Shown here: in pieces, positions 37,092 through 61,207 of the stretch | Layout of the letters: each line of letters opens with the position of its first letter | How positions within the stretch are numbered: position 1 is the first letter of the stretch | Assembly (NCBI GenBank): GCA_963663765.2 | Contig: CAXXUA010000015.1 | Location: 448,001 to 512,000 of the forward strand | Length of the DNA stretch: 64,000 nucleotides | DNA from: Candidatus Poribacteria bacterium | GTDB lineage: Bacteria; Poribacteria; WGA-4E; WGA-3G | Reading direction: 5' to 3' | Position numbers and translations under genes: made by a program | Notes under the pieces: model-generated | Told to the model about the DNA's origin: nothing | Databases searched by the model: none | The model's input: the letters and a program-made list of their open reading frames with translations, nothing else

Positions 37092-37119
37092 GACACGATT
37101 TAGAAAGGAAAAGGGTGCA
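37092..37119 (-). promoter_or_regulatory. ECF-type promoter motif TGCACC-N17-GTGTC
   Basis: Minus strand TGCACC cttttcctttctaaatc GTGTC tttaat, 55 bp upstream of ORF 36719-37036. Confidence 0.7.
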
Positions 37120-37452
37120 TAACGTGGAAATTAATGGGTTGCTTACTAACGCAACAATTACCGCTCTTTTACCTGATTTACTTCGGTGTGCAAGTTATAC
37201 CGCGTATCAACCACCATTGCTCTCCGCATTCCGAGATGATTTGATACAAATCGCTACCATCACTGTTTGAAAAAGACCCTATGTTCAATCCTACACAATT
37301 AAAAACGTTCCTGATATGAATACCGAATGTTCTGTGGATGAACTTGTTTGGTAGTTATCCATTGCCAATTTTGAGAAAATCCTATCTCAACTCCTTGAAA
37401 ATGTGACTCCGCGTGAACAAATGATTATTTGCGATTGCAACTCTCTAACCCT

Positions 37453-37719
37453 TCAATAATCTTCATGTTAGTAAATTTAGTAAATATTTTCTTATTATGC
37501 ACCCTTTTCGATCTAATACTGTGTCTTTAATTATGAAGGTATCAATAATCTTCATGTTAGTAAATTTAGTAAATATTTTCTTATTATGCACCCTTTTCGA
37601 TCTAATACTGTGTCTTTAATTATGAAGGTATCAATAATCTTCATGTTAGTAAATTTAGTAAATATTTTCTTATTATGCACCCTTTTCGATCTAATACTGT
37701 GTCTTTAATTATGAAGGTA
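37453..37719 (+). repeat. 89-bp tandem repeat x3, each unit carrying the TGCACC-N17-GTGTC motif
   Basis: Units start at 37453, 37542 and 37631; motifs at 37498, 37587 and 37676. Confidence 0.9.
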
Positions 37720-37810
37720 TCAAATACCTTTGTTTGGGAAAATCAAAACCAAGCATTATTGCGTAAGTCCTATCGTTTATCAATAACTTGAGAACATTGC
37801 ATCATATTTA

Positions 37811-38386
37811 ATGTTCTTGTTATTGTTGTCCATAAAGGAAGACATGAAAAGTTTACAAAAAGGTAAATGTGAGAAGTTTCCAAGAACACCCGTGGATAGT
37901 TTCCTTGAGTCGTTGCGATTTGCGAAGGCAAAACCGCATATTCCGAAAGGTGCATGTCTTTTAGGTATCGGTACAGGAGATGGTGCTTTCTTACGACACC
38001 TCAATGGACATTTCCACATCGGCGTTGGAATTGATGCAAATCTAACCGAATCCGTTGAATTTGCGGATTATCATCTTGTGAAAGGATACTTTCCACACGA
38101 CTTTGACACAAACAAAACCTTTGATGTCATTACGATGTTGGCGACTGTTGAACATATACCGATGGGGATGCTCCCAAAAGTCGTGGATATGTGTTGGGAT
38201 TACTTCAAACCAGGTGGGCACGTTATTATTACTGTGCCTCATCCTCGTATGGATGGACTTCTGGATTTCCTGAAAAAAACCAGGATAGTCGAAGGTTTCT
38301 CTATGCATGAACATTACGGTTTTGATCCTGAATGTCTGCCAGATGTTTTAACCGTTGGCAACTTGTCCAAACTATCGGAAATATAA
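37811..38386 (+). pseudogene. Class I SAM-dependent methyltransferase, copy 1 (degenerate, truncated)
   Basis: Near-identical to 44112-44726, but motif I is LLGIGTGDG (vs LLDIGAGDG), with a 1-bp deletion near 38349 and a lost C-terminus. Confidence 0.7.
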
Positions 38387-38448
38387 GATGCCTTGATGCA
38401 TCTATATTCTATTCAACTTTAAGTATGAAAGAATAAAGGAGAATTATT

Positions 38449-39090
38449 ATGTTTAAAAAAGAACGTAGAATCCAACTCGCCATCGTTTTCTTAGTAGGAA
38501 TGTTCATTCTCGGTGGTACCCTGCTCAACATCGCCAACGGAGGAGAGAAGGTCCATGATATTGACATTGATGAAGATGGAAATGTTGATGTTGTGGTCAC
38601 CGTTACAACTGATATAAGTATTGAAGATGAAGACGAACATCAAAATGCAAAACCTGAAGATTTAGCTACCTTCTCCGCGCCTACACCCTACTGGTATTTA
38701 GCAGATGATTTAACAAATGGGGGAGGATCAGTTTCCGTGAGTGGAACCCGTATTGATGATGACGGAAATGAAATTGGGAAGGTTTCCGTTTATGGTGGTG
38801 TTTCTGTCTCCGTAGACTTTGACAATCTTAATGTGACATCCTATTATTGGGCTTACGCGTCCAGCAACGTCTCTGGCGACAACAATGATTGGGATGAACA
38901 TCACACTTGGGTTCAGGTTCCCGGTAAGAATAAATCCTTCCATTCGTATTCTACAATGGATACTACCACCTATGTGGAAACCATTCCAGAGTTCTTTGAT
39001 AATCTTGAAGACAAGGTTATGGGGGCATACGCTATGCTAAGTACGAAAGGTGCACGAATCGAGGTCGAATTTAAGGCTGAGGGTCAATAA
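38449..39090 (+). CDS. Secreted acidic hypothetical protein
   Basis: AAGGAG RBS, N-terminal hydrophobic segment, sequons NVT, NVS and NKS. Confidence 0.75.
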   Translation: MFKKERRIQLAIVFLVGMFILGGTLLNIANGGEKVHDIDIDEDGNVDVVVTVTTDISIEDEDEHQNAKPEDLATFSAPTPYWYLADDLTNGGGSVSVSGTRIDDDGNEIGKVSVYGGVSVSVDFDNLNVTSYYWAYASSNVSGDNNDWDEHHTWVQVPGKNKSFHSYSTMDTTTYVETIPEFFDNLEDKVMGAYAMLSTKGARIEVEFKAEGQ

Positions 39091-39563
39091 TGGACTGTCT
39101 ACGTGTTCTCGTAACCCTTTTCATTATTACACTGAGTTTCTACCCGCAGACCGGGTGTAAACAGAAGGGGGACACTACGTCCCCCTCCACATCACAACCA
39201 AGTGAAGATAATAAAAAGAAGCTCGTGGAAATAACAGTTGGTGGCAAAGTCTGGAAAGTTGATCCAAATCTCTCCTATCAAGCGACAGGTGTGTGGACAA
39301 ACCCGAAACCAAGATTACTTAGTGATGAAGAAAGAGAACGGATCCAGGAAATACCCGCATTGATCCAAACATTGAAAATGCAGATTGATGAACTTGACAA
39401 GGAAATGAGATACCTTGAACGTATTGAAGAAACACAGATAAAAATTCGTTATAACTTCGGAAAATCACCCGATCTTTCACCTAAAGGCAATAGAGAAATA
39501 ATTGATTTAGGTGAATTCCCAATGGAAATGGAAAATCCTAAGAAAATACCCACAGAACAATAG
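39090..39563 (+). CDS. Exported hypothetical protein (possible lipoprotein) with coiled coil
   Basis: TAATG coupling to the upstream gene; hydrophobic N-terminus followed by QTGC. Confidence 0.65.
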   Translation: MDCLRVLVTLFIITLSFYPQTGCKQKGDTTSPSTSQPSEDNKKKLVEITVGGKVWKVDPNLSYQATGVWTNPKPRLLSDEERERIQEIPALIQTLKMQIDELDKEMRYLERIEETQIKIRYNFGKSPDLSPKGNREIIDLGEFPMEMENPKKIPTEQ

Positions 39564-39571
39564 GAGCTATC

Positions 39572-40600
39572 ATGAAATCCTTTATTAGATTCCTCTGCTT
39601 ATGCATGCTTTTACTACTTCCATTTGCAACACATGCAAGGAACACCGCAGAGTTCGCTGGGGAAGTTATCTTTAAAAATCGAGGGAAAGAAGAACTTTAC
39701 AACGAGCTTTGGATTACCCATATTGAGGACCCAGGGAACGCACGGCTGCTTTATAAACACAATGAGGGAGAAAGGATCATTAAATATGCCATACAGAAAG
39801 ATGGTCCCAACATCGCCATTTCTGCAGGACGTATACCATATGACATTTTCCTAATTAATAGAAATCAACTGAGCAAAGGAGCACGCAACCTTACAAATAA
39901 AAGATTTAATGATATTTGGAGTGTTGACATCTCATCCAACGGAGATATTCTCTTTAGAAACTCACATCCAGTTCCCTTTCCAGAAGTGATTGTAGGGCTT
40001 TATCTCATGCCAAATGATGAAGTCAAAAAGGTAAAACCACAAGCTACACTATTAAAAGAAGGGTCAATAAACTTTGTCCGTTGGTCGCCCGATAACGAAC
40101 ATTTTATATATTTAGATCGGTTTGCCACGGGTCTTTATCTTTACAATCTCCGCACCGGAGAAGATACACTTATCACCAAAGATAATGTGCAGTCTACTCT
40201 CTTATATCCTGCTTTCTCACCGGATGGCAAAAAGCTTGCTTTTATTTATCAACCTAAGATTGAACCTGGTTTTGAACTTGACGTTATTTCACTTGAGACC
40301 CTGTATCCCCAGTTGCTCCCAAATGACCCTAATGGAGATTTGAGATTTAGTCGCATCAAATGGCCTGCGGAAAAGTATCTTGTCTATAGCAAACACGATA
40401 GTCAGAGACAGTCAACAAAAGCAACGCATTTCGTAATCCGCATTGATGGAGGGCCTCCAGAACAAATATTAGAGGGTATGGAGAAGATGTTTGAAAATGG
40501 ACTACCAGTTTTTAAGTTGGGAAACACAACGTTCGCTGTTGAACCCACAAACCGACTAACAACCGTATGGGGAAAACTCAAAACACGCAACCTAAAGTAG
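39572..40600 (+). CDS. Secreted TolB-like (PD40) beta-propeller with C-terminal VEP..L.T.WG.LK motif
   Basis: Signal peptide; WSPD and PAFSPDGKKLAF motifs; ends FAVEPTNRLTTVWGKLK. Confidence 0.8.
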   Translation: MKSFIRFLCLCMLLLLPFATHARNTAEFAGEVIFKNRGKEELYNELWITHIEDPGNARLLYKHNEGERIIKYAIQKDGPNIAISAGRIPYDIFLINRNQLSKGARNLTNKRFNDIWSVDISSNGDILFRNSHPVPFPEVIVGLYLMPNDEVKKVKPQATLLKEGSINFVRWSPDNEHFIYLDRFATGLYLYNLRTGEDTLITKDNVQSTLLYPAFSPDGKKLAFIYQPKIEPGFELDVISLETLYPQLLPNDPNGDLRFSRIKWPAEKYLVYSKHDSQRQSTKATHFVIRIDGGPPEQILEGMEKMFENGLPVFKLGNTTFAVEPTNRLTTVWGKLKTRNLK

Positions 40601-40658
40601 ACCTAAAACAAGTCAGCAAACGTCAATCATAGGTGCTGCCCGCCCCGGGTCCTAAAAT

Positions 40659-43124
40659 ATGAATGTAAAGTCGCTAATACCACACCTTCAGAATGTTTTC
40701 ACACTTTCTCGGTGTGCAGCACTTCTGCTGTGTAGCAGCATCCTCTTTTTAGCGTTCTGGATACGTATCCAAGGTGTTGATCGAATCCCAGACAAGCAAT
40801 TTACCGATACCGACGGTTATTTCTTTTATGATCAAGCTCAACTCATCACCGAACACGGCACCCTGCCAGACCGGGATATGTCCCGTTGGGTTCCTATCGG
40901 TAAGGATTTGACACAGACACTCCCGTTCTATGGTTACGTGCTTGCATATTCCCACAAAGTGATCGCACGTTTCTTCCCAAAAGTTTCACTGTATCATGTT
41001 TGCATCTATATGCCTGTAGTCTGTTTTATCCTTGGACTCGGGGTGTTGATGTTCTTTTTTTATCATCAGTTTGGGCTACTCTTTTCGGGCATCATCGGTG
41101 TCTTATTAGCAACGCTTCCTGGGGCGATTGACCGAAGCGCAGCCGGTTTTGGTGACCGAGACAGTTGGTGCCTCTTAATTGGCATTCTTGCGATAACCAC
41201 TTATCTCCAAGCACTTCAGGTACAACATCCTCTTCACAGACTCTATTGGACACTTGCAAGTAGCTTCAGCGTCTGTATCGGAGGGTTATCTTGGGTAGGA
41301 TTTAGCATTTTCCTCGTCATTATCATGAGTGTTGAACTCTGGCGGTTTCTCACTTCTGAAAAAGAAGAAGGATTAGGATATTACGCTTTATGGACGTTAA
41401 CTTATGTTCTCCTGCTTATACTCGGTTCTCCTGTCTATCGTGGCGGAGGCGGCGGTTTTACGACACATCTTTTCACCTATGTGATAATACCGCCACTAAC
41501 ACTTTTGGCAATACGCACTTGCCGCTATCTGATACTCACAAAGTCAGCTTTTTCAAAACATCTCTTACAACATTCCCGAAACATAGCCTTCATTCTGATA
41601 ACTATTACACTTACACTTGCACTCTTTACTGTCTTGAGAAAACTTAATACATTTGACACACTACTACCTTTCAGTCAAAACAAACTCATGCAAAGTATTG
41701 GAGAATTACAAAGCCCCAATTACAAGTTTTGGTATATTAAGTTCGGCGGGGTCTTTCTGTGCGGCAGCATCGGATTTCTTCTCACAGGAATACATCCCCG
41801 AAACAGATTCGGGCACCTTCTTTTGGCTATTCCGCTCAGTCTGTTTATCCTCACAACTTTTTACCGAGAACCTGTTAATTTACTTTACATGAGGCTATTT
41901 AAAACTTCGCTTGGTAACACGCTCTTTTTTGCTGCAGTTGGTAGTGTTGGGATCGGTTTTCTGATACATGCATGGCAACGCAAAATACATCTACCAAAAG
42001 ATATTCTTTACGTTGCGTTTTGTGCATGGTTTTTTTGTTGGGTTGCACTTACACGGGACGCTAAACGGTACGACTTTTTTATTGGCGTTGCCGTCGCTTT
42101 CTTTACTGCGGTAGTTATACATGCACTCGCAAAGAGGCTCAGTGAGAAAACAATAAGTTTCCAGTTCACACCCCTATCCTTAAAATCAAATAGGGTACAA
42201 ACTGTTTTTACCACCAGCATTGCGGTTGCGGTGTTATCTTTGTTGTTATTCTGGTCCCCTGCTGGAGCACACACAAGATGGTCACGCCCCGCTGCTGTAC
42301 ACTTCCGAAATCCGCTCCCCGGAGACGGACCAATGGCAAAAACTATCAATTGGATTGCAAATACACTTGAAGAAACTGATGTTGTCGCCGCAAACTGGGA
42401 ATACGGAAATCAACTCAACGTACTCGGTGAAGTCAGAACAATTATCAGTCCCGATCACTACCTTCCTCACTGGATCCATCTCTTTTTTCGACACGTCTAT
42501 GCAGCACAATCTGAAAATGAAGCATTAGAATTTCTTTACACACACGAAGCAACACACTTAATGTTTAATCAAAGGGACGTTCTCAACACGGGCACTTTTT
42601 CAGAACTTGGGAGTGATTTACATAAAGACCGGTTTTTCATACCTCAACATCTACAGTTGTCAAATTCAGAAACTGGAAAAACAAAACATCTCATAAATAC
42701 TGATAATACACCATTTAACAAGATAGATGTGGAGCCTAAGGAATCCCCGTTAACCCTCACAGCACACACAAAAGATGGGCAAAAAGTAACACTTCCCTAT
42801 GTAGCGTTCATAGGTTATCTCAAAGAAAAAACACCGAATACCGTAGATGGTAAAAATGGCGGAGTTATCCTCTATTTAGATCCCAGACGAAATCTCCAAA
42901 AAGCATATTACCTATCTCACATCGGTTGGAATAGTCTCATTGTTAGATTATACATTCGGGGAGAACCTTCCAATGCGTTTGAGCCCATATATACCCAAAG
43001 AGAGGATATAAGAGATCAAAAAATGGTACGATTTGACTTCACCAAAATTTGGAAGATTCGGTATCCACCCAACATCAAAAAGAAACCGAAATATCTTGAA
43101 ACAGAACCGTCTGAAGGGTATTGA
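40659..43124 (+). CDS. STT3/PglB/AglB-like oligosaccharyltransferase (GT-C), paralog 1
   Basis: About 13 TMs; FTDTDGYFFY, RSAAGFGDRD (DxD), RDAKRY; AANWEYGNQL at the WWDYG position. Confidence 0.75.
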   Translation: MNVKSLIPHLQNVFTLSRCAALLLCSSILFLAFWIRIQGVDRIPDKQFTDTDGYFFYDQAQLITEHGTLPDRDMSRWVPIGKDLTQTLPFYGYVLAYSHKVIARFFPKVSLYHVCIYMPVVCFILGLGVLMFFFYHQFGLLFSGIIGVLLATLPGAIDRSAAGFGDRDSWCLLIGILAITTYLQALQVQHPLHRLYWTLASSFSVCIGGLSWVGFSIFLVIIMSVELWRFLTSEKEEGLGYYALWTLTYVLLLILGSPVYRGGGGGFTTHLFTYVIIPPLTLLAIRTCRYLILTKSAFSKHLLQHSRNIAFILITITLTLALFTVLRKLNTFDTLLPFSQNKLMQSIGELQSPNYKFWYIKFGGVFLCGSIGFLLTGIHPRNRFGHLLLAIPLSLFILTTFYREPVNLLYMRLFKTSLGNTLFFAAVGSVGIGFLIHAWQRKIHLPKDILYVAFCAWFFCWVALTRDAKRYDFFIGVAVAFFTAVVIHALAKRLSEKTISFQFTPLSLKSNRVQTVFTTSIAVAVLSLLLFWSPAGAHTRWSRPAAVHFRNPLPGDGPMAKTINWIANTLEETDVVAANWEYGNQLNVLGEVRTIISPDHYLPHWIHLFFRHVYAAQSENEALEFLYTHEATHLMFNQRDVLNTGTFSELGSDLHKDRFFIPQHLQLSNSETGKTKHLINTDNTPFNKIDVEPKESPLTLTAHTKDGQKVTLPYVAFIGYLKEKTPNTVDGKNGGVILYLDPRRNLQKAYYLSHIGWNSLIVRLYIRGEPSNAFEPIYTQREDIRDQKMVRFDFTKIWKIRYPPNIKKKPKYLETEPSEGY

Positions 43125-43167
43125 TAAAATTAGTTATGGTGCTATTTGCGTTAATTGGGTTGTGAAC

Positions 43168-43701
43168 ATGATGAGAAAATCTAAAATCTGGTTTGTCATA
43201 GCGACTCTTATCGTTGTTGTTATAGGTATTGTTTATGTCAGCACTCAGAGGAAACCTGAATTACGTAGTTCAAGAGGTTTTGCATGGGTTAAACATTGGG
43301 ACGAACTTGAACTTGGCACAGTCAAAAAAAATTATCAACGCTACACCGTTGACGAAATGCGGATACTGTGGGATGTAAAACTACATGATAAGTTTGGTAG
43401 TTATTCAGGCAAAGCGCATGCCGAGACTGTCTACCCATGGGATGCATATCTTGCACGCCTGCTGGAATTAGGACATCCTTTTATTGACTTATCGGACTAT
43501 GAGAGTGCTTTAGACACACGGATGAGTCTTTTAATTCGAACACGAACCTACTGGCAAACGATGAATAGAGATGAAAGAGACGCATATATTAACACACTCG
43601 GATTGTCCCCGGATGCATCATGGGAAAAGTATGAGGAGTCACTGATAAAACAGATCGTTGTTTACCGTATCAATTGGTGGCGTTCAATCCTACACAATTA
43701 A
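43168..43701 (+). CDS. N-anchored hypothetical protein; C-terminally altered copy of 47299-47934
   Basis: Near-identical DNA at 43275-43686 and 47484-47895; ends at a duplication junction. Confidence 0.65.
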   Translation: MMRKSKIWFVIATLIVVVIGIVYVSTQRKPELRSSRGFAWVKHWDELELGTVKKNYQRYTVDEMRILWDVKLHDKFGSYSGKAHAETVYPWDAYLARLLELGHPFIDLSDYESALDTRMSLLIRTRTYWQTMNRDERDAYINTLGLSPDASWEKYEESLIKQIVVYRINWWRSILHN

Positions 43702-43851
43702 AAACGTTCCTGATATGAATACCGCATGTTTGGTGGATGAACTCGTTTGGTAGTTATCCATTGCCAATTTTGAGAAAATCCTACCTCAATTCCTTGAAAA
43801 TGTGACTCCGCGTGAACAAATGATTATTTGCGATTGCAACTCTCTAACCCT

Positions 43852-44020
43852 TCAATAATCTTCATGTTAGTAAATATTTTCTTATTATGCACCCTTTTCG
43901 ATCTAATACTGTGTCTTTAATTATGAAGGTATCAATAATCTTCATGTTAGTAAATTTAGTAAATATTTTCTTATTATGCACCCTTTTCGATCTAATACTG
44001 TGTCTTTAATTATGAAGGTA
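43852..44020 (+). repeat. Promoter-bearing tandem repeat x2 (80 + 89 bp)
   Basis: Same unit as 37453-37719; motifs at 43888 and 43977. Confidence 0.88.
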
Positions 44021-44111
44021 TCAAATACCTTTGTTTGGGAAAATCAAAACCAAGCATTATTGCGTAAGTCCTATTGTTTAACAATAACTTGAGAACATTG
44101 CATCATATTTA

Positions 44112-44726
44112 ATGTTCTTGTTATTGTTGTCCATAAAGGAAGACATGAAAAGTTTACAAAACGGTAAATGTGAGAAGTTTCCAAGAACACCCGTGGATAG
44201 TTTCCTTGAGTCATTGCGATTTGCGAAGGCAAAACCGCATATTCCGAAAGGTGCATGTCTTTTAGATATCGGTGCTGGCGATGGCGCTTTCTTACGACAC
44301 CTCAATGGACATATCCACATCGGCGTTGGAATTGATGCAAATCTAACCCAATCCGCTGAGTTTGAGGATTATCATCTTGTGAAAGGTTACTTTCCGGACG
44401 ACTTTGACACAAACAAAACCTTTGATGTCATTACGATGTTGGCGACTGTTGAACATATACCGATGGGGATGCTCCCAAAAGTCGTGGATATGTGTTGGGA
44501 TTACCTCAAACCTAGTGGTCAGGTTGTTATCACAGTACCTCATCCTCGTATGGATGGACTTCTGGATTTCCTAAAAACTTGCAGGATAGTTGAGGGATTC
44601 TCCATGCATCAGCATTACGGATTTGACCCTGAATGTCTTCCAGATATTTTCAACCGTTGGCAACTTGTCCAAAGAGAACGTTGGGGATTTGGATGCAATA
44701 ACCTTTTTCTTTTTGGAAAACGTTGA
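44112..44726 (+). CDS. Class I SAM-dependent methyltransferase, copy 2 (intact)
   Basis: LLDIGAGDG, FDVITMLATVEH and LKPSGQVVITVP motifs. Confidence 0.85.
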   Translation: MFLLLLSIKEDMKSLQNGKCEKFPRTPVDSFLESLRFAKAKPHIPKGACLLDIGAGDGAFLRHLNGHIHIGVGIDANLTQSAEFEDYHLVKGYFPDDFDTNKTFDVITMLATVEHIPMGMLPKVVDMCWDYLKPSGQVVITVPHPRMDGLLDFLKTCRIVEGFSMHQHYGFDPECLPDIFNRWQLVQRERWGFGCNNLFLFGKR

Positions 44727-44881
44727 CTGTTATCCCTGCTCTGCAGGTGAAATTTATAACTATTGCTTATTTTTTAATTCGAAAAATTCAGTGGAAAACA
44801 TAAAATTGAATACATGCAAATCACAAACGCATTGTTTTCCACGGACCGCCACAAAAACAAAGTGGCAAGGAGAATAACAAA

Positions 44882-48729: not shown

Positions 48730-48763
48730 AATCCCAGATAAGACAAAACACAAAACATATCAA

Positions 48764-51421: not shown

Positions 51422-54328
51422 TCATCTAACAGAACGTATGGTAGCGGTCCTGGCTTCTGAAGGGTTTTCTTCAAGCGATGTGTGAAATATTCCGCGTTCT
51501 TCGGTACCGATGTAAAGTTTATCTTGGCTGGCAGAAAGAGATATAACCTTATTAGGAATATTACTTAAGATTTGTTCCCAACTACCGCGAGGATCTAAAC
51601 TGTAAACACCCGTACCGCCAATACCATAAAATTTTGATCCGTTCATAGCAAATTTATCTATGACCACAGATGTTCCGTTATGATCCGTTATGATACGCCA
51701 ATGTTCCCCAGTTTGTGAAATCATCGCACCTTTATCAGTTGCAACACAGACCGTCGCCCCTAAAAATGTAATATCCTTAATTTGGGAATAATTTGATGGA
51801 ATATTTGGTGTAATGTCTCGCCAACTTTTTCCACCATCAATGGATTGGTATAACTTACCATCCCGTTTACCTACGTAGACAACTTCCACTGAGACTGCTA
51901 ATTTAAATCCTCTGTCCAAACCTTTATTAATAAATTTGTTCATATCTGTTAATCCCGTGTCTATCACTTCTGTGTTACCGAGTGTCCATTTGAAAAGTCG
52001 CCGCATGTATTCTATGTAGAAAGTTTCACCGCTCACAGCGATTGCTCCTAATTTCTGTTTTCTTTCAGTATTTGATAAATTTATGTTGTTCAAATCCTCA
52101 CTGTTTGTCCACAGTGTTGGGTCATAAATTCTATGAACCATTGAGAACACACCATCGTTAGTTCGTAAACGAAAAATGCGTAGTTCCTTTACTTGAGGTA
52201 TAATTCCGTAAAGAACGTTGTTGGCAATTATCAACTTTGAGTCAGTAAAATGATTATCAAGTTGATCTCCGATACTTGTTAGTTCTGGCGTAAACTCGCC
52301 ATAATCAATGCGAACTTCTTCCCACGAGTTTCCATTATCAGCAGATTTGTAAAATCCTGTTCCGGTATATACATAGAGCTTGTTATCAAAAACAACTATA
52401 TCTCGTACTTTGGTTTTCACCATACCATTTGTAAATGGATGCCATGAGTCACCACCATCAGTTGTGCGGAGAATACCTGAAGTACCCACCTTGTAAAAAG
52501 TATTATCGTTTACTGCTAAGACTGTAGAATAAGTTGATGGAAGTAAGTTTATATTAAGTCCGAGGTTTGTCCAAGTTTGACCGTTATCTTTCGATCTGAA
52601 CGTTGGAATACCTAATACTAAAAGCGTTTTATCAACAGCAGAAATCTTTGTAGGACCCATAAACAACGGTCCTGTGTTAACATCTATATCTTTAGGTGTT
52701 ATTTCGCGCCACGTAGAACCTAAGTCGACTGAATGGTAAATCTTGCGATACTTATTGTTGGGTGAGTTTGATTCCAAATATTCAGGACTAAGAAAATCTG
52801 AACCTGTCACGACATACAGATTGTTGTCAAAAACTGCCATTGAGTGAACAGTATTTTGTGGGTCCACTGACAATCGATCCCACAATCCAGAATTTAAGCG
52901 ATAAAGACCTTGGTTTGTTCCAATAAAAACAGAGTCGCTAATCTTAGCAACTGCAGAAATTTTCTTTCCTATCAACCCATTATTCAGAGGTATCCACTTT
53001 TTACCAGCATCAGTTGATCGAAAAACGCCTTCATTTCTCAAAGCAAGGTACATTAAAAAGTTTTCTTGTGTATTACCTCTTATTACTAATCCAACAGCAT
53101 CTCCGTTTGGTCGAGCACAGAATTTATTCCAAGTCTCGCCATCATCCTTTGAAGCCAATATCTCATTCGTATTGACAGAATAGATAACGCCACGATGTTC
53201 AGTTATGGGTGAGCGATAAGTGTTAATAGGTATATTTGTATTGATATTCATCCATGCAGTATTATCTTTCGTTAACCTATAAATACCTGTTCTTGAAACT
53301 GCGTGGATGTTATTATCTGAAGTCGCGAAGATATTAGATAAAGGAGACCCTTCTGGTCCATTTGCTTGTGTCCACTGAACAGCTGATGAATTAAGCGTGT
53401 TTTCTTGAACATTGGCTGCTAAGTCGGCATCAGAAGCAATTGTACCAGCCCCTTCATTTTTAATGTTGGTAACACTTCTTCCAATATTGTTTCGTACAGC
53501 TGGGTTCGAAACAATATCAATGTGTATAGGTGATTCCACTATTTCAACAGTCGGTTCAGAGAGGGCGTCAAAATTATACAGCATCTGAAAGTGCGCAATA
53601 TATTGGTTCATTGCTCCAAGTAATAACATAACCAACACAGCAGCTGTACCTAAAGCTGCCCACGGTAGCACAGGTTTTGCTACGGGTGGCGTGGGTTTTA
53701 TATCAGCAATTTTCTGCATGATATTCTCTGTTAGATCAGTAGATAATTGCACACCACCAAGATGTTCGGTGATTAAAAGTTCTCCTTCTGCTTTCAAACG
53801 GTTTCGCGCCCGTCGAATCTTGCTCTTAATTGTGTTCACGGATACACCTAAGGTTTTACCTATATCCTGTGCAGTCATTTCGCCGAGATAATAGAGGGAC
53901 ATTACTGTACGTTCACTCTCTGGTAATTTCTTCAACAACGCTTTGACGATTGTGCTGTTGTTCTCGGCAGCTTCTTTTTCCCGTTGTTCCGATTCATAAT
54001 GGTTATAAAAAGTCTTTTCTATTCCTTCCACTGCAGTATCCTCTATAGATTGTATTGGGGTTTTGTTCCTTTGAAGCCAATTGATACAAAGCCGTGTCGT
54101 GATAACATATATCCATCCATCAAATTGTTTTGGATTTTTAAGTGTAGATAGTTTTTTATATACTTGGATAAAGGTATCTTGGGTAATTTCTTCAGCAATG
54201 TGGTAGTCCCCAATCTTTTTCCAAGCGATCGCGTGAACTTTCTTTTGGTACTTTTGCACTAAAAGACTAAACGCTTCTTCTTCACCATTCAAAATTCTTT
54301 GAATTATTTGAACATTACTTTCTTCCAT
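51422..54328 (-). CDS. ECF sigma factor fused to a TM helix and an extracytoplasmic BNR/Asp-box beta-propeller
   Basis: sigma2 (AEEITQDTF..F.GWIY.I..R.CINW) and sigma4 (LPESER..YYL.EMT..DI...LGVSVNTIKSKIRRAR); TM PWAALGTAAVLVMLLLG; repeated SxDxGxxW. Confidence 0.9.
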   Translation of the reverse strand: MEESNVQIIQRILNGEEEAFSLLVQKYQKKVHAIAWKKIGDYHIAEEITQDTFIQVYKKLSTLKNPKQFDGWIYVITTRLCINWLQRNKTPIQSIEDTAVEGIEKTFYNHYESEQREKEAAENNSTIVKALLKKLPESERTVMSLYYLGEMTAQDIGKTLGVSVNTIKSKIRRARNRLKAEGELLITEHLGGVQLSTDLTENIMQKIADIKPTPPVAKPVLPWAALGTAAVLVMLLLGAMNQYIAHFQMLYNFDALSEPTVEIVESPIHIDIVSNPAVRNNIGRSVTNIKNEGAGTIASDADLAANVQENTLNSSAVQWTQANGPEGSPLSNIFATSDNNIHAVSRTGIYRLTKDNTAWMNINTNIPINTYRSPITEHRGVIYSVNTNEILASKDDGETWNKFCARPNGDAVGLVIRGNTQENFLMYLALRNEGVFRSTDAGKKWIPLNNGLIGKKISAVAKISDSVFIGTNQGLYRLNSGLWDRLSVDPQNTVHSMAVFDNNLYVVTGSDFLSPEYLESNSPNNKYRKIYHSVDLGSTWREITPKDIDVNTGPLFMGPTKISAVDKTLLVLGIPTFRSKDNGQTWTNLGLNINLLPSTYSTVLAVNDNTFYKVGTSGILRTTDGGDSWHPFTNGMVKTKVRDIVVFDNKLYVYTGTGFYKSADNGNSWEEVRIDYGEFTPELTSIGDQLDNHFTDSKLIIANNVLYGIIPQVKELRIFRLRTNDGVFSMVHRIYDPTLWTNSEDLNNINLSNTERKQKLGAIAVSGETFYIEYMRRLFKWTLGNTEVIDTGLTDMNKFINKGLDRGFKLAVSVEVVYVGKRDGKLYQSIDGGKSWRDITPNIPSNYSQIKDITFLGATVCVATDKGAMISQTGEHWRIITDHNGTSVVIDKFAMNGSKFYGIGGTGVYSLDPRGSWEQILSNIPNKVISLSASQDKLYIGTEERGIFHTSLEENPSEARTATIRSVR

Positions 54329-54350
54329 TAAATAACTCCATCGGTTAATC

Positions 54351-54510
54351 TAATACCAATTCAAATAAATCTTGTCTCATTAAGGAATTCTACTTTTTAC
54401 TGGCAGGGGGTTACTCTCTTCGGTAGGAGCGACCTCACGGTCGCGACCGTGAGGTCACTCCTACCAGATTTCCGCTGCTAATGAGACATTAGCACATGAA
54501 AATGTTATTA
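54351..54510. mobile_element. 160-bp MITE (family H), copy 2, between the ECF gene and its promoter motif
   Basis: Inverted near-identical copy of 29518-29677. Confidence 0.75.
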
Positions 54511-54556
54511 CACAACAGTTTTATTTAAACAGACTATTATCTACTTTTAATATTAA

Positions 54557-54584
54557 GACACAGTTTTTGGTCAAAAAGGGTGCA
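54557..54584 (-). promoter_or_regulatory. ECF-type promoter motif upstream of the ECF sigma gene (autoregulatory candidate)
   Basis: Minus strand TGCACC ctttttgaccaaaaact GTGTC ttaat. Confidence 0.75.
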
Positions 54585-54691
54585 AAAAAGAAAAAAAGAT
54601 TATAAAAACATAAAAATAATATTTGTTTGTGGTGGCAAAATAATATAATAAAGCAATTGATACTATCAGTCAAGTTCAAAGGTTCAAAGAA

Positions 54692-55666
54692 CAGGGTTAT
54701 TCAGTTTCATAATTTTTGGATTTTTCCAAAAAGAACCCCGCGGTAGGAGCGACCTCCCGGTCGCGATTTTCTCAGAAAACGACTAAAATGCTAAAAACTA
54801 AATAACCCTGGTTCAAAGGCAGGGTTATTCAGTTTCATAATTTTTGGATTTTTCCAAAAAGAACCCCGCGGTAGGAGCGACCTCCCGGTCGCGATTTTCT
54901 CAGAAAACGACTAAAATGCCAAAAACTAAATAACCCTGGTTCAAAGGGGTGTGTAAAGTTTTTGCACAGAGGTACTAACTTTTGTTCTCTTTAGTCCCGT
55001 AGGGACGCAATGTTTATAGAAAGACGTTATCACATCCCCTCTCTTTAGTTCCGTAGGAACGACATAGAAGGATAAACATATCGTCCCTACCAAATCAACG
55101 CCAAATGCGCCAAATCAACGGTATGAATGCCATTAAGGCATTCCCCGTATGGCATTTGTCGGGACTAAAAAGACGTGGGGATATGTATTTCTATAAACAT
55201 ATCGTCCCTACGGGACTGAAGAATATGGTTAATATTAACAATATTTCTTTATATTGACACCTAATGAAGTTTGAGAATCAAAATCGGCAGTTGAATTCGT
55301 AGGGGTTGGGTTCCCCAACCCGTTTGGTTATTAAGTTTGCGTAGATCGGGCGTGGCAACCACGCCCCATAGGCGTCAATTTAAGGATTTTCACCTCTTGT
55401 GGGAGGGGTTTTCAACCCCGATTTTTTAGTGCATTTCCGCTCAAATTGAGGTTGAAATCCCCTCCCACAAGAAAAATGACAACAATATTTTCTTAAATTG
55501 ACGCCTATGGGGTGTGGCAACCACGCCCCTACGAATATACAACTTGAACGTCAAAACTCATTATGGCTCTGTGTCCCGCAATCTCTCATTTAATCAGTTG
55601 GGGCGGGCACAGAGCCCCGCCCTACAATGAAGAATGAGTAGTTTGTGCAAAAACTTTACACACCCC
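54692..55666. repeat. Tandem family-A MITEs followed by a nested family-B element
   Basis: Two about 128-bp family-A units separated by GTTCAAAGG direct repeats; then ggggtgtgtaaagtttttgcaca ... tgtgcaaaaactttacacacccc enclosing taggcgtcaatttaag / cttaaattgacgccta and other palindromes. Confidence 0.75.
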
Positions 55667-55847
55667 TTCAAAGAAATTGCTTTCATTACACCAGAAGAAT
55701 TCAATTCTCCAACAGTCGTAAAACTATTGGTCCAGTAGAACTTACTAACCCCAGAACTGTCAATTTTGGGATTATTATAGGTTTCAACCGTACTTTACCA
55801 ACATTCATTATGCTGAACACTTAACGATTCTGACAAATTTCACTTTT

Positions 55848-55875
55848 TGCACCCTTTCCACCTTTTCACTGTGTC
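55848..55875 (+). promoter_or_regulatory. ECF-type promoter motif upstream of the peptide operon
   Basis: TGCACC ctttccaccttttcact GTGTC atgaat. Confidence 0.72.
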
Positions 55876-56004
55876 ATGAATTATGGAAGCTGATTTACCT
55901 AATGACAAAACGTAAGTTTTGGACATTGTCAATAGGAAACTTCCATAGTATTAGCACAGTCATTAACGGACGAAATGACCGGAAAAGAAAGGAGGTGAAC
56001 CCTA

Positions 56005-56253
56005 ATGTATAAAAGATTACGCAATAAAATTAGCGAATTTATCAACTCTGAAGAAGGAAAAGTAGGAGTCAAAACTTCGTTATCATTTGGTTTGGTAGGC
56101 GGAGGATTACTGCTAATGCAAACAATGTTTCCTCTCGCTGCTAAGGCGGGATATGAGTGTTGGAGTAATGATAATTGTGCAGATGACGAAAAATGTGTTT
56201 TTTTTCAAGATGAGTATACAGGTGAATGGTACTCTGAGTGTGTTGATGTCTAA
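56005..56253 (+). CDS. 82-aa precursor peptide: Flp-pilin-like leader + hydrophobic segment + 4-Cys acidic core
   Basis: Strong RBS AAAGGAGGTG; MYKRLRNKISEFINSEEG|KVGV..., AAKA|GYECWSNDNCADDEKC...C; followed by a hairpin. Confidence 0.8.
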   Translation: MYKRLRNKISEFINSEEGKVGVKTSLSFGLVGGGLLLMQTMFPLAAKAGYECWSNDNCADDEKCVFFQDEYTGEWYSECVDV

Positions 56254-56272
56254 CACGTGATTAAATCATTTC

Positions 56273-56309
56273 AAATGGTTCCGCTGCTTTGAACAGTGGA
56301 ACCAATTTT
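56273..56309 (+). terminator. Probable intrinsic terminator after the peptide gene
   Basis: GGTTCCGCTG-ctttgaa-CAGTGGAACC followed by AATTTT. Confidence 0.6.
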
Positions 56310-56412
56310 ATTGTGTTAAATGAAAGCACGGAATTTGTTTATCAATGTAAAATACACAACGTTCTTAATGATAGGTATGTAATAAATATTCTGGAAACTA
56401 TGGTGAAATTTA

Positions 56413-56638
56413 GAGTTATTTACACATTCCGGATTTGTAGGAGGGAACTCCGATTCCCGATTACGAGTTATTTACACATTCCGGATTTGTAGGAGGGAAC
56501 TCCGATTCCCGATTACGAGTTATTTACACATTCCGGATTTGTAGGAGGGAACTCCGATTCCCGATTACGAGTTATTTACACATTCCGGATTTGTAGGAGG
56601 GAACTCCGATTCCCGATTACGAGTTATTTACTCCTACA
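56413..56638. repeat. 52-bp tandem repeat x4 of a REP-like half-element
   Basis: Identical units (core TGTAGGAGGGAACTCCGATTCCCGA), closed by a single CTCCTACA. Confidence 0.9.
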
Positions 56639-56692: not shown

Positions 56693-57694
56693 ATGAAACG
56701 AACATTTGTGTATATTATATTAGGGACTATGTTATTCAACGGCCTATTATTTAGTAACGTACAAGCTGCTGAACATTCTGTTCTTTCCTTTCTTTCTAAC
56801 GAGAAAGGGGATTTTGACATATTCATCATAGATACTGACGGTAGAGTCCGTGAACGGATTGTAACGGATGCGATGAGAAAAAGTTCGCTCACATGTTCTC
56901 CTAAAGGTTATCTTTTTGCTTATTCATCAAATGAAAACGCTAATCTTGATATTTATAAAATGGATATTAGGAATAAAATATCAATACAGTTGACACTGCA
57001 TCCTGAGAGGGATCTATGGCCATCTTGGTCCCCTAATGGACAATGGATTGCCTTTGTCTCTGATCGGGAAGGAACTCAAGATATTTATAGAATGGATGCT
57101 GACGGTTCCAACTTAATAAGATTAACTGACCAAGGACACAACGGGATACCCTCTTGGTCTCCTGATAGTCGGTTGATCGCTTTTGATTCTGATAGGGAAG
57201 AAAATCATTCTATCTATAGCATGAATGCTGATGGTGGACAGTTAAAACAACTGACAGAGGATCTACCACTGGGACCAGGTTGTACGTGGTCACCAGATGG
57301 AAAACAGATTGCCTATGCTGCAGGAGATTTTAGCGCAGAAGGTGTTGATATTTTTACAATTGATGTCAATGAAAAAAATATCACCAAATTAACTAACATG
57401 GGGAGAGGAATCCGATCTGGTAATCCCGTATGGTCACCCGATGGTGACTTGATTGCCTATTCAATTGTGGAGGTCGAAGAGTGGCCAAACCCCGCTAACG
57501 GATTCAGACTTATTTTTGGCGACAGCACAATTTATCTCGTGGATAGCACAGGTAATGGTGATGAAAAACCGCTTAAAGAGACAACGGGTCTTTCCAACGA
57601 TCATGTGCCTGTCTGGATACCAAAAGGTTTTTTCTCAGTTTCACCAGATAAAACTAAACAGATAATCACCTGGGGAAAACTCAAACAACCATAA
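56693..57694 (+). CDS. Secreted TolB-like PD40-repeat protein with C-terminal VSP....TWGKLK motif
   Basis: Signal peptide; repeated P.WSPDG..IA(F/Y); ends FSVSPDKTKQIITWGKLKQP. Confidence 0.88.
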   Translation: MKRTFVYIILGTMLFNGLLFSNVQAAEHSVLSFLSNEKGDFDIFIIDTDGRVRERIVTDAMRKSSLTCSPKGYLFAYSSNENANLDIYKMDIRNKISIQLTLHPERDLWPSWSPNGQWIAFVSDREGTQDIYRMDADGSNLIRLTDQGHNGIPSWSPDSRLIAFDSDREENHSIYSMNADGGQLKQLTEDLPLGPGCTWSPDGKQIAYAAGDFSAEGVDIFTIDVNEKNITKLTNMGRGIRSGNPVWSPDGDLIAYSIVEVEEWPNPANGFRLIFGDSTIYLVDSTGNGDEKPLKETTGLSNDHVPVWIPKGFFSVSPDKTKQIITWGKLKQP

Positions 57695-57734
57695 GTATTA
57701 GAAAACCAACCCAACTATAGTTTTAACATAAAAT

Positions 57735-58868
57735 ATGTCTTACTACGAATACTATCTCATTATTCTAACGCTTATTTTTTGTGGATACGCCTGTTACACA
57801 GATATAAAAACACAGAAAATTCGTAATATTTGTTCTTTCGGACTTCTTTATGCTGGAATACTCAGCCAACTTATGGCGTGGTACCTTGGCAAAACAACAC
57901 CGTTTAACATATCCGGGCTGTTTCTTGGAAGTGGAATCGCAGCATTTACTTTTTATTGGTTCGGTATTTTCTCACCAGGGGATTCCAAGCTCTTTTGGGG
58001 TCTCTGTATGATTTTTCCACCGCCACTTTTTGCGCTCTTGAATGGAACAGCAAGTTTTCCACCATTGATACTTGCACTTAATATCATCATTCCTTACACA
58101 ATAGGAGTCCTGGGATATCTACTGTTAAAATTATTTATGGGACACAATAAGTTGGAGTTCCTAAGTAATCTCCTTTTGAAAACCCTTCAAAAAGAGATAC
58201 TTTTACAGCGAATCTTCAACTTATTGCTTTTAATAGGTATAGGTTCTACGATTACTTATATTTCTAAATTGTTTGAATGGGAAATAAATAGACCCTTACA
58301 GATCGGTTTGGTCTTAATGACATTTATGTCAGCACGAAAATTGCTGTCACGTTTGCCCAAAACGCAGATCTATTATGCGGTAATTGGATTCGCTTGTATT
58401 TGGATTTCATTAAAAGCAAGCACATCAATAACAGGAGTTATCTACAGTATTGCTTTTTTCTTATTTTTATATTTTGTCATTTTCGTCATTGCTAAACAAT
58501 TGGTTCTTGGATTAGCAATGACGTTGGAGCGAAATATTGATATAGAAAACCTAAAAATCGGTATGATCCCAGCAGAGCAAATCATTCAGAAAACACTTCA
58601 AGACGGTGTTGCCTGTTATGAAAAACAACAAGCAACATTTTCAAGTGGAATAATGGATAACATTATTATTTCACCCAGTGCTACCGGTCTTAGTAAGGAA
58701 GAGATAGCAGAATTGAAAAAACTGGCAGATCAGGGGGAGTTCATAAAGTATAAAAACAAAATCAAAATCCAACCTGACATTTGCTTTGCACCAGTTATCA
58801 CTGTTGGGGCATTACTAACTATTCTCTGCCAAGGTCCGTTTTATCTCAAATTAGCACAAATATTTTAA
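57735..58868 (+). CDS. Prepilin peptidase (A24 family) with extra TMs and a FlaK/EppA-like C-terminal region
   Basis: Both catalytic Asp motifs YTDIKTQKIRN and PGDSKL; LKIGMIPAE; C-terminal ICFAPVITVG. Confidence 0.82.
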   Translation: MSYYEYYLIILTLIFCGYACYTDIKTQKIRNICSFGLLYAGILSQLMAWYLGKTTPFNISGLFLGSGIAAFTFYWFGIFSPGDSKLFWGLCMIFPPPLFALLNGTASFPPLILALNIIIPYTIGVLGYLLLKLFMGHNKLEFLSNLLLKTLQKEILLQRIFNLLLLIGIGSTITYISKLFEWEINRPLQIGLVLMTFMSARKLLSRLPKTQIYYAVIGFACIWISLKASTSITGVIYSIAFFLFLYFVIFVIAKQLVLGLAMTLERNIDIENLKIGMIPAEQIIQKTLQDGVACYEKQQATFSSGIMDNIIISPSATGLSKEEIAELKKLADQGEFIKYKNKIKIQPDICFAPVITVGALLTILCQGPFYLKLAQIF

Positions 58869-58914
58869 AGTTATAAAAGGGAGGGGATGGTGGATTATAC
58901 AATTAAATCTACAT

Positions 58915-59203
58915 TCTGAGTTGTAGGAGGGAACTCCGATTCCCGACTATCAAAGTTTTTGGTCGCGATCTGAGTTGTAGGAGGGAACTCCGATTCCCGA
59001 CTATCAAAGTTTTTGGTCGTGATCTGAGTTGTAGGAGGGAACTCCGATTCCCGACTATCAAAGTTTTTGGTCACGATCTGAGTTGTAGGAGGGAACTCCG
59101 ATTCCCGACTATCAAAGTTTTTGGTCGCGATCTGAGTTGTAGGAGGGAACTCCGATTCCCGACTATCAAAGGTTTTGGTCACGATTCAGAGATCGCTCCT
59201 ACA
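58915..59203. repeat. 54-bp tandem repeat x5 of the same REP-like half-element
   Basis: Units at 58915, 58969, 59023, 59077 and 59131; same core as the 56413 array; closed by CTCCTACA. Confidence 0.9.
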
Positions 59204-59238
59204 ATTAAGATGTCCAATTATTTCCATATTTCACCATA

Positions 59239-61107
59239 ATGTATATTATGAAACGTACAATCTTTGTTCTAATCGTATTAACTATAGTTGTTACTTTACC
59301 GCCTTTTTACACACAATGGGTAGAATCTCAAAGGTTAAAACAGATACAAACAATTAAGCATCAAGCACGACCAATTTTGGGGCAACCGTTGCAACAGGTT
59401 TTATCTGAACTCAAAAGAAACGAACCGCCTTCAACGGTTATTCTATATACTGGTAACACAAAAAGCCATCTTGAACCGTGCGGGTGTTACCAAGAACAAG
59501 CTGGTGGATTATCAAGGCGGGCTGAAGTTATAAAACAAATTCGACAATGTGGATATCCAACAATTGTCGTTGATGCCGGAAACATATTCGACGGACAAGA
59601 GAAAATAGACGTACAACGCGCCAAAACGAATATGAAAGCATTAGCAGAAATGGACTACGCAACAGTCGCACTGAGTCACACCGATCTCACTTACGATGAC
59701 GATTATCTTATACAACAAAAGAATGTGGCTACGTTCCCATTCTTAGCACCCAATGAAACACAAACGGACTTCACAGAACCTTATGTTACCAAACAAGTTG
59801 GTCAACATACCATCGCATTTGTCGCAGGGAAGGCATCGAAACAAGCCGTATCTGAAGCGGACATTATTGTGGCGTTAGGCAATCCCCGAAAACTTGACAA
59901 TATTGACGTGATAATTCTACCAAACGAAGTAGAAGCATTGGGATCTGGTACCCAGACATTATATGTTGGTTCTAAAGTTGAAGGTAAGACATTAGGTGTA
60001 TTGGCACTGTGGTTAGATACAAATGGTGAAATTACAAATCATTACACAGCGCACATAGCATTGACTGGTGAAGTCGGTGAATCGGAATTAATCCGCAAAA
60101 TGTTAACCGAGTTTTACAAAAGCACAGCCGAAGAAAATAAAAAGTCTGGTCTACCACTCTTTGCCGAACAAGCATTAGAAAAACAGAACAGCGAGTATAT
60201 CTCAGCAAATACTTGCAAAGGTTGCCACGAACAAGAATATCTACAATGGTCAGCAACACGCCACGCTTTCGCTTATCAAACGCTTCTAAAAAAGGAACGT
60301 TACTTTGATCCGAATTGTGTCGCTTGCCATACAACAGGATTCGGTTATGCTACAGGTTACCAGATAGGGGATCAAGACTCAACGCTCAAAGGCGTGCAAT
60401 GTGAAACTTGCCACGGTCCAGGCAAACAACATGCAGGCAATCCCAAGAAAAGCAATATCCGCAGTGGTAAAGATATGTCACTTTGTCTACAGTGCCATGA
60501 TGCAGAACATTCACCAGGCTTTGCAGATGTGGTCACATTGCATACAAAAGATGTCGACCATAGCCGAGCACCGATGAACTTAGAAGAACTTTTAAAATCC
60601 CGAATAGAGCGAATGGGAAAACCAACACTTGAACTCTTTGTAATGAGTTACTGCCCTTTCGGTATCCAAGCAGAAGAAAAACTCATCCCGATTGTCAAGA
60701 AATTCGGTGACAAAATCGACTTCAAACTGCGGTTTATTGCACAAGAAAAGGATGAACTTTCTTCACAAGACATAACACCTTTTGTCAGTTTGCATGGTTA
60801 TCCAGAAGTAGCAGAAAATATGCGGCAGCTACTCATCGCACGAGAATATCCAGAGCAACTTTTAGTTTATCTCCTATGTCGTGGTAAAAAGTTGAACAAA
60901 AGTTGGGAAGATTGTGCAAAGAAACTCGGTATTGATGTGGAAAAAATAAATCGTTTGTTTAATACACCTGAGGCAGAGCAGCTGTTCAGGGAAAACATCA
61001 AACGTGCTGCTGAATTAGGTATAAAAGCATCACCAACGATTTTTGTAGATGGACAAAAATTCCCAACGAGTCAACTACTACGTGCAAGCGGAACACCTTG
61101 CCAGTAA
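59239..61107 (+). CDS. Fusion: UshA-like metallophosphoesterase-fold N-domain + tetraheme c554-like cytochrome + DsbA/thioredoxin-like domain
   Basis: LEPCGC...GGLSRR and VDAGN; four CxxCH (CKGCH, CVACH, CETCH, CLQCH); LFVMSYCPFG ... GIKASPTIFVDG. Confidence 0.82.
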   Translation: MYIMKRTIFVLIVLTIVVTLPPFYTQWVESQRLKQIQTIKHQARPILGQPLQQVLSELKRNEPPSTVILYTGNTKSHLEPCGCYQEQAGGLSRRAEVIKQIRQCGYPTIVVDAGNIFDGQEKIDVQRAKTNMKALAEMDYATVALSHTDLTYDDDYLIQQKNVATFPFLAPNETQTDFTEPYVTKQVGQHTIAFVAGKASKQAVSEADIIVALGNPRKLDNIDVIILPNEVEALGSGTQTLYVGSKVEGKTLGVLALWLDTNGEITNHYTAHIALTGEVGESELIRKMLTEFYKSTAEENKKSGLPLFAEQALEKQNSEYISANTCKGCHEQEYLQWSATRHAFAYQTLLKKERYFDPNCVACHTTGFGYATGYQIGDQDSTLKGVQCETCHGPGKQHAGNPKKSNIRSGKDMSLCLQCHDAEHSPGFADVVTLHTKDVDHSRAPMNLEELLKSRIERMGKPTLELFVMSYCPFGIQAEEKLIPIVKKFGDKIDFKLRFIAQEKDELSSQDITPFVSLHGYPEVAENMRQLLIAREYPEQLLVYLLCRGKKLNKSWEDCAKKLGIDVEKINRLFNTPEAEQLFRENIKRAAELGIKASPTIFVDGQKFPTSQLLRASGTPCQ

Positions 61108-61179
61108 TTTATGCTTAATTTGTTATTTTCCTGCGTTTTTCACCAATTTTTAGATAAAATTCAAATATTTTATGCCTTA

Positions 61180-61207
61180 TGCACCCTTTTCGGTCTAAAA
61201 CTGTGTC
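61180..61207 (+). promoter_or_regulatory. ECF-type promoter motif
   Basis: TGCACC cttttcggtctaaaact GTGTC tttaat upstream of 61313. Confidence 0.75.

Follow-up and report, generated by a model that had tools for sequence, protein, structure and literature searches.

A predicted local ECF sigma regulon with a TGCACC-N17-GTGTC promoter in a Poribacteria genome

Extracytoplasmic function (ECF) sigma factors that act as local regulators control closely linked genes (PMC7776599). The promoter code given for such factors by Todor et al. 2020 (PMC7776599) has a -36 TGxAACC / -13 CGTC consensus, an Asn at residue 84 (RpoE numbering) that reads -13/-12, a residue 175 that is tied to -32, and a Lys171 that favors C at -31. 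Here we describe a 64,000-nt stretch of a Candidatus Poribacteria bacterium genome (assembly GCA_963663765.2, contig CAXXUA010000015.1, positions 448,001 to 512,000; hereafter the window, whose numbering we use) in which copies of TGCACC-N17-GTGTC lie around the gene of a 968-aa ECF sigma factor (51422..54328, minus strand; found with Pfam, NCBIfam and a structure model). The published register and consensus fit this locus and so do all three residue relations, except that Arg175 goes with C at -32 here and with T in the paper. It also differs in that the code would here separate about 20 paralogs within one genome and in that the factor is a membrane fusion. We consider it likely that the motif is read mainly by the 51422..54328 factor, which would control itself, a peptide operon, a small winged helix-turn-helix (wHTH)-like gene and captured cassettes. 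The logic of an autoregulated local ECF regulon with an Asn84/-13 rule is already published, and the window locus appears to be a well-resolved case of this known regulation.

Such a regulon is a defined and testable one in an uncultured sponge-symbiont phylum, with a likely reader named among about 20 near-identical sigma factors. Whether ECF paralogs of the same group in one genome are redundant or specialized is called unsolved in PMC7826278, and the Poribacteria family provides a natural test in the form of paralogs that come with a self-promoter each and with a stated cross-talk prediction for each pair. We found no paper on Poribacteria ECF factors in the openly accessible literature.

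The 968-aa protein matches Pfam Sigma70_r2 at 23-89 and r4_2 at about 128-179, with TIGR02937 over its cut-off. The Pfam scan gave no r3 match, i.e. regions 2 and 4 only. One membrane helix is predicted in a hydrophobic segment at about 220-238, and the C-terminal part (about 311-955) is modeled as a BNR/GH74-like double beta-propeller with a mean pLDDT of 78.5. The best solved-structure matches to the propeller are GH74 double propellers (TM about 0.62, 16% identity), and Bacteroides glycan-sensor domains rank lower in that match list. A relative with 47% identity is from Candidatus Poribacteria.

In build the factor resembles ECF57 of Planctomycetes (PMC7826278, PMC8999054), which shares the expanded paralogs, the long C-terminal extension with helix and beta-propeller, and a proposed release from the membrane. 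However, the host here is a member of the Poribacteria, the extension has one hydrophobic segment where that of ECF57 has about two helices, and the window member has a BNR double propeller instead of WD40 (PMC7826278). ECF57 is reported in PMC7826278 without a strongly conserved promoter, whereas the window family has one. The same source gives ECF57 an invariant pair of Cys in sigma2 and sigma4; here there is no invariant sigma4 Cys, as in 126 cores Cys occupies column 81 in 98% and column 153 in 37%, with Ala in the window sigma. The window factor lacks two defining features of ECF57, the planctomycete origin and the Cys pair. ECF263 has the same -35, TGCAC(A/C), with a -10 of CGTC, which is also found in most of the paralogs here but is TGTC at the window sites; it has five or seven helices, and a separate anti-sigma in two subgroups, where the window sigma has one helix (PMC7826278). 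ECF30 uses TGCAACA with CGTC in part of the group, but it is not a fusion and the window -10 is TGTC (PMC7826278). In ECF128s2 a BNR/sortilin/YCF48 domain outside the membrane is the presumed sensor and sits on a separate anti-sigma, whereas here it is fused to the sigma factor (PMC7826278). Our model for activation is IutY of Pseudomonas putida, in which sigma factor and membrane regulator form one protein and Prc and RseP release the sigma factor (PMC8999054). IutY is an iron-uptake ECF243 with a siderophore signal, and proteolysis of the window protein is proposed by analogy.

The motif as a predicted ECF promoter

There are nine exact matches to TGCACC-N17-GTGTC in the window, compared to a mean of 0.02 in shuffled sequences, and none of 100 shuffles reached nine. 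They are where an initial annotation of this DNA had placed them, at 37092(-), 37498, 37587 and 37676(+), 43888 and 43977(+), 54557(-), 55848(+) and 61180(+). All nine are intergenic and have a same-strand gene downstream, as had also been claimed. The copies form six loci and about four independent promoters, because the 37.5k, 43.9k and 61180 copies share descent and the other three (37092, 54557, 55848) are unrelated to any other DNA of the genome. The copies at 37498, 37587 and 37676 are an exact 89-bp x3 tandem, and 43682-44673, which contains 43888 and 43977, is a duplicate (about 94-96% identity) of 37283-38371. The copy at 61180 has 15 of 17 spacer letters in common with the 37.5k unit and 88.9% identity over 54 nt; by this comparison it is related by descent to the 37.5k and 43.9k sets. 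The annotation had described the spacers as different among independent loci, but 61180 is not such a locus. The 17-nt spacing is exact in all nine window copies, but six TGCACCC copies elsewhere in the genome have 16 nt. The annotation overlooked this variant, and it overlooked the roughly 20 sigma paralogs with near-identical self-promoters.

Across the genome (6.35 Mb) the exact motif has 17 matches against about 3.2 expected per spacing, and 10 of these are on contig C15 at 485-513 kb. There is a second peak at a spacing of 19 (14 copies). We rejected it as a promoter variant since 10 of its copies belong to a 336-bp periodic repeat on C15. With a scoring matrix made from 15 self-promoters, all from other genomes, we found 25 sites at 20 bits in the genome and 1 in the reversed sequence. 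Twenty sites score above 22 bits; 19 of them are intergenic (the non-coding fraction of the genome is 0.19) and 19 face a same-strand gene, so that the genome-wide scan which the annotation had proposed as a check found both the intergenic and the strand bias. Fourteen of these 20 lie between 485 and 521 kb on C15, no more than about 20 kb from the window's sigma gene. In 15 neighborhoods from other genomes (387 kb), 58 of 59 sites are intergenic and 57 point toward a same-strand gene, with 0 in the reversed control; these neighborhoods were selected for holding an ECF gene or the motif, which takes some weight from them. Within one Poribacteria family the strict pattern occurs in 67 of 81 genomes, all from two genera, and none of 39 genomes outside the family has it; reversed controls are near zero.

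Information in 48 de-replicated sites extends from about -50 to +6 and is at background beyond, with an upstream T-tract and with purines at +3 to +5; the search pattern dictates the core letters in this profile and leaves the flanks free. In promoter register TGCACCC occupies -36 to -30 and GTGTC -14 to -10, in agreement with the numbering in Table S1 of PMC7776599. That numbering makes a start about 10 nt after the last C more probable than one 6-8 nt after GTGTC, as had been expected. A T-tract downstream of the -35 is a known feature of ECF promoters (PMC5758882). The intergenic placement, the orientation and the conserved -50 to +6 shape support the idea of a bipartite ECF promoter, and we predict that the motif is most likely a -35/-10 promoter of this type.

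RNA from two runs of one sponge metagenome study has a related strain present as contigs, at a share of 0.05-0.06. One contig over the peptide gene ends at 55887, which is 2 nt from the predicted +1 of the peptide operon, and another starts at 55948, and we left them unused as start-site support since contigs cannot show starts. Folding of 55884-56007 as a structured 5' leader was no better than for shuffles (z -0.81).

We also weighed a reading without any promoter role, in which the motif would be a repressor site or the conserved core of an element that moves or recombines. Copies were duplicated together with flanking DNA and amplified in tandem, two different upstream flanks share one downstream flank, and the intergenic DNA is rich in repeats. 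Against this, the isolated copies at 37092, 54557 and 55848 are not part of any such duplication, and the motif is asymmetric, is strictly oriented to genes and stands at a fixed distance of about 65 nt upstream of dozens of diverged sigma genes. Its bases also covary with sigma residues known to read those bases. We find an element of this kind very improbable.

Matching a sigma factor to the motif

The genome encodes 41 ECF-like proteins, of which 21 are close to the window sigma. A membrane helix is present in 17 of the 21, with BNR or WD40-like repeats after it in most, and most paralogs have TGCA(C/A)C-N17-xxGTC about 65 nt upstream of their own start. The family is found in 39 of 40 genomes of the genus, mostly with about 20 matches each, a count bounded by the 21 candidates scored; three genomes of the sister genus have 38-46 members each. 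The self-promoter of the window factor (54557..54584, minus strand; TGCACCC, T-tract, GTGTC) has a predicted +1 near 54547, and the motif plus its flanks is kept 50-470 nt ahead of close orthologs, which supports the earlier suggestion that 51422-54328 is autoregulated. The distance from promoter to start codon is 256 nt in the window, partly because a dispersed 160-nt intergenic repeat (54353..54510; 189 genomic matches of at least 120 nt) is inserted between them.

The window sigma has N83 (RpoE 84) and R172 (RpoE 175). To relate these residues to promoter bases we used the self-promoters accepted for 98 of 125 family members, picked blind to -13 and not blinded at -32. Asn at 84 goes with T at -13 in 23 of 23 self-promoters, compared to 1 of 75 for other residues, and alignment column 83 has the top mutual information with base -13. 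Arg at 175 goes with C at -32 in 49 of 51 (other residues, 5 of 47). A held-out set, in which -13 and -32 were both blinded and almost all cores came from the sister genus (32 accepted self-promoters from 70 cores), gave the same picture at -13 (Asn84 8 of 9, others 1 of 23).

Mutagenesis of another ECF factor gave shares of TG of 0.185 for Asn, 0.075 for Ser, 0.066 for Thr, 0.021 for Asp, 0.015 for Ala and 0.006 for Glu, and the Asn variant still uses CG with a share of 0.40 (PMC7776599 Dataset S3). Going by these published figures, the Asp, Ala and Glu84 paralogs should read TGTC poorly and the regulon should be largely private. Because the window factor is the only one of the 41 ECF-like proteins with both Asn84 and Arg175, we believe it is the likeliest reader; the covariation makes the case for 51422-54328 as the cognate sigma stronger than the initial annotation could. 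Strong CGTC sites in the genome are mostly the paralogs' own promoters, so that of this family the window factor seems to be the member whose regulon comprises several genes.

Several observations weigh against this assignment. The -32 rule is weaker in the held-out set, with C in 9 of 11 for Arg175, in 8 of 21 for others, and in 7 of 7 for Gln175. For residue 84 there were 4 independent contrasts (p 0.125 in a sign test), and for residue 175 there were 9 (3 in the same direction and about 6 with no difference, p 0.25); opposite-direction cases are almost absent, neither result is significant, and the trees behind them were quick and FastTree trees of kin sequences that are not independent. 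The cores with no accepted self-promoter (27 of 125 and 38 of 70) were left out, and several close N84 orthologs are among them. The genome has a second N84 paralog at C5:581363-584362, whose self-promoter is TGCAATT-16-GTGTC, and TG might be read weakly (share about 0.07) by those Ser/Thr84 paralogs that carry R175. Asn84 and Arg175 occur together in many paralogs of the sister genus, so the insulation of the regulon would be specific to this genome.

These paralogs, the second N84 and the Ser/Thr84 ones with R175, suggest an alternative in which several factors share the motif, many sensors feed one regulon, and the window gene is one reader of it. Each genome has about 20 paralogs whose self-promoters are closely related, a matrix from non-N factors still gives the window sites 18.6 bits, one Ala84 paralog has a GTGTC self-site, and in B. 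subtilis ECF regulons are known to overlap (PMC5758882). However, the target sites match the self-promoter of the window factor at both -32 and -13, and the concentration of 14 of the 20 best sites near the window gene has a counterpart in four other genomes (G012, G051, G014 and G002), where TGTC sites cluster next to the ECF ortholog. In the published mutagenesis, TG is hardly used by the Asp, Ala and Glu variants (PMC7776599). We think that a shared reader is unlikely and keep the 51422..54328 factor as the main one.

Conserved targets and the proposed mechanism

Comparison among relatives points to four conserved targets. These are the sigma gene itself, the Cys-peptide operon that diverges from it, the gene for the small wHTH-like protein and, behind the UshA-like gene, an outward promoter. 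Both this operon and the 61180 position had been proposed as members of the regulon, and they held up, as the operon promoter is present in 10 of 10 direct-ortholog loci and the outward promoter recurs in relatives. The operon promoter (55848..55875, plus strand) is an exact motif with a predicted +1 near 55885. The first gene encodes an 82-aa peptide (56005..56253, plus strand) with a conserved 48-aa leader (F..SEEG, a hydrophobic stretch and AxA) and a core that is variable, acidic and has 4-6 Cys, and there is a strong terminator-like hairpin behind it at 56276-56304. Flp and type IV pilins have Gly at the cleavage site and Glu at +5. In the peptide G18 is invariant in 67 sequences, with Lys instead of Glu at +5 and no Pfam match, and we rejected a pilin assignment.

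The rest of the core operon (56693..61107, plus strand; profile searches) encodes a TolB-like PD40 propeller (56693-57694), an A24 prepilin-peptidase-like protein (57735-58868) and a UshA-like/cytochrome c554/DsbA fusion (59239-61107). The order from peptide to fusion is kept beside the ECF ortholog in six genomes (G012, G014, G015, G040, G007 and G051). The fusion, in which a c554-like cytochrome and a DsbA-like domain are joined to the UshA-like part, has PCGC in place of PCGU, the namesake of the NCBIfam family. After the operon, the outward promoter (61180..61207, plus strand) heads variable secreted-protein genes at 61313-64000 and has related copies on contigs C3, C5 and C6. Most relative loci have such a promoter 3' of the UshA-like gene, or of the peptidase where the UshA-like gene is missing.

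The wHTH-like gene (36719-37036) encodes 105 aa and has its promoter at 37092..37119, on the minus strand. This unit is kept in relatives, where it directly follows the ECF gene in G012, G040 and two G051 loci; in the window 14 kb of plus-strand cassettes separate the two. In G051 and G012 a small second ECF gene lies downstream of the 105-aa gene; this second ECF gene is absent from the window. The wHTH label comes from a Pfam match below the cut-off (E 0.003), and an atlas search with the protein gave unnamed clusters only.

In the mechanism we propose, the 51422-54328 sigma would be held at the inner membrane by its one helix, with the GH-like double propeller outside. A signal at the propeller would trigger membrane proteolysis, as in IutY, and free the sigma2-sigma4 part. 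The freed sigma would then transcribe its own gene, the divergent peptide/propeller/peptidase/UshA-cytochrome-DsbA operon, the wHTH-like gene and the genes behind the outward promoter. The match of TGCACC/TGTC promoters to Asn84 plus Arg175 would insulate this set from the roughly 20 paralogs with TGCA(C/A)C-N17-xCGTC. Copies of the outward promoter, once duplicated, tandemly amplified and recombined, would bring variable surface-protein and glycosylation cassettes under the window sigma, and the two STT3-like cassettes of the window may be such captures. The genome does encode an M50 site-2 protease, but as such proteases are universal (14 of 14 controls), its presence proves little.

Going by the modeled fold, a glycan or envelope fragment is the likeliest signal, with about an even chance of being right. 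It is considerably less probable, and we doubt, that the signal is the co-regulated peptide. A fuller version, that this is a one-protein loop, is a long shot: the sigma would drive export and processing of the Cys-peptide, its own propeller would sense the peptide or its propeller partner, the two-residue address would insulate it from about 20 sister receptors, and the outward promoter would be a recombination hub for strain-specific glycosylation cassettes. The peptide is matched in 11 of 40 genomes and the ECF family in 39 of 40, and the many ECF orthologs with no peptide match speak against a loop in which the peptide is obligatory. None of the five distant peptide paralogs of the genus had the family promoter within 1.5 kb upstream, and the short upstream stretches examined for sister-genus copies did not show it either.

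In the sister genus the peptide family reaches up to 18 matches per genome, often as tandem pairs of a peptide and a TolB-like propeller, with genes for the A24 peptidase, the UshA-like fusion and an ECF factor next to them (L152-L165). About 150 nt before the peptide genes of the sister-genus and distant copies (L152-L165, L122-L127), the ECF promoter is replaced by a conserved leader with several short inverted repeats, which is possibly an RNA element. Our literature search gave no relevant result for a secreted-peptide system with a conserved leader and a variable Cys core, and the system is apparently undescribed.

STT3-like cassettes and other variable genes

Three tandem 89-bp promoter units (37453..37723, plus strand) stand before a cassette of methyltransferase, secreted-protein, TolB-like and STT3-like genes (37811-43701, plus strand; profile matches). 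The duplicated promoter and methyltransferase segment (43682..44673, plus strand), whose start truncates the gene 43033-43701, stands before a second cassette of secreted-protein, GspC-like and STT3-like genes (44882-51274, plus strand). The second cassette appears to have a worn sigma70-type promoter of its own at 44779..44806 (plus strand), where the window has TCGAAA-16-TAAAAT and the corresponding position of locus L173 has TTGACA-17-TAGAAT. A scan of 36500-56400 with a sigma70 consensus found 51 sites against 49 expected, which is no excess, so this call is made from the L173 alignment only.

We picked 20 STT3-like genes from other genomes by protein similarity, and none had the family promoter within 10 kb upstream, not even an ortholog of 40659-43124 with 88% identity; for the window controls the same search gave 3 and 2 sites. 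Five of these 20 loci hold relatives of the 44882-51274 cassette, and the cassettes elsewhere have sigma70-type promoters of their own. What lies behind outward-type promoters in relatives varies among genomes and includes STT3-like, GT2, PMT-like, WD40 and ThsB-TIR genes, and the downstream flank of 61180 is found joined to two different upstream flanks. In our judgment the best explanation of the variable cassettes is capture by duplication and recombination, and the STT3-like cassettes look like passengers.

The initial annotation had instead placed the STT3-like cassettes with the peptide operon in one envelope programme, of which they would be selected and lasting members. For this there are 8 neighborhood segments with an STT3-like gene in a same-strand run behind a TGTC promoter, and the other cassettes found there (GT2, PMT-like, WD40) repeat a theme of surface glycosylation. 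These neighborhoods were chosen by ECF gene or motif, however, and may share ancestry. The 0 of 20 result, the sigma70-type promoters of the same cassettes elsewhere and their worn form in the window, and the arrival of the 43.9k promoter by a recent duplication that cut a gene all speak against it. We regard a lasting programme as rather unlikely, if not quite as unlikely as the shared reader, and prefer capture.

The STT3 label itself stood in part. A likeness exists, as the products of 40659-43124 and 48710-51274 match TIGR04154 with E 2e-11 and 8e-14, but at 43-51 bits against a cut-off of 450, with no Pfam STT3 match and a weak match to PDB 2lgz. WWDYG is the acceptor-binding motif of the STT3/AglB/PglB oligosaccharyltransferases and is also visible in the 2lgz alignment. 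In the window proteins it is altered to NWEYG and NWGYG, and the candidate acidic motifs DGY/DAY and DRD are present. They are possibly glycosyltransferases with a different acceptor rule. The family matches in 31 of 40 genomes of the genus, with up to 12 each.

In other genomes (loci L173, L175, L177, L179, L180, L182, L185) these cassettes have a non-coding block ahead of them, 150-350 nt before the first gene; the block is conserved, contains a GC hairpin and a T-run, and was not seen at the corresponding window position. Tandem stacks of two to four promoters like that at 37453-37723 also occur in L141 (G051), L147 (G040) and G035, and they may reflect a tuning of dosage or a general tendency to form repeats. 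A ThsB-type TIR gene lies directly behind the same promoter at C15:512390-513029 and C6:168790-169429 of the window's genome (G000) and at L132:2285-2830; the family assignment was confirmed on the G051 copy.

Four stretches, 33600-36700, 54330-55700, 56413-56631 and 58915-59185, are dense in dispersed palindromic repeats, which have up to about 400 matches in the genome, and hold tandem arrays of 52-128 bp. Remnants of a putative transposase-like gene, labeled from reading the sequence and with no Pfam match, lie at 35049-35880. Secreted proteins encoded at 39572-40600, 56693-57694 and 4084-4857 end in a T/S-WG-x-L/I-K-like tail, the strict pattern of which is found in 62 of 4498 open reading frames and is a candidate for a lineage-specific sorting signal.

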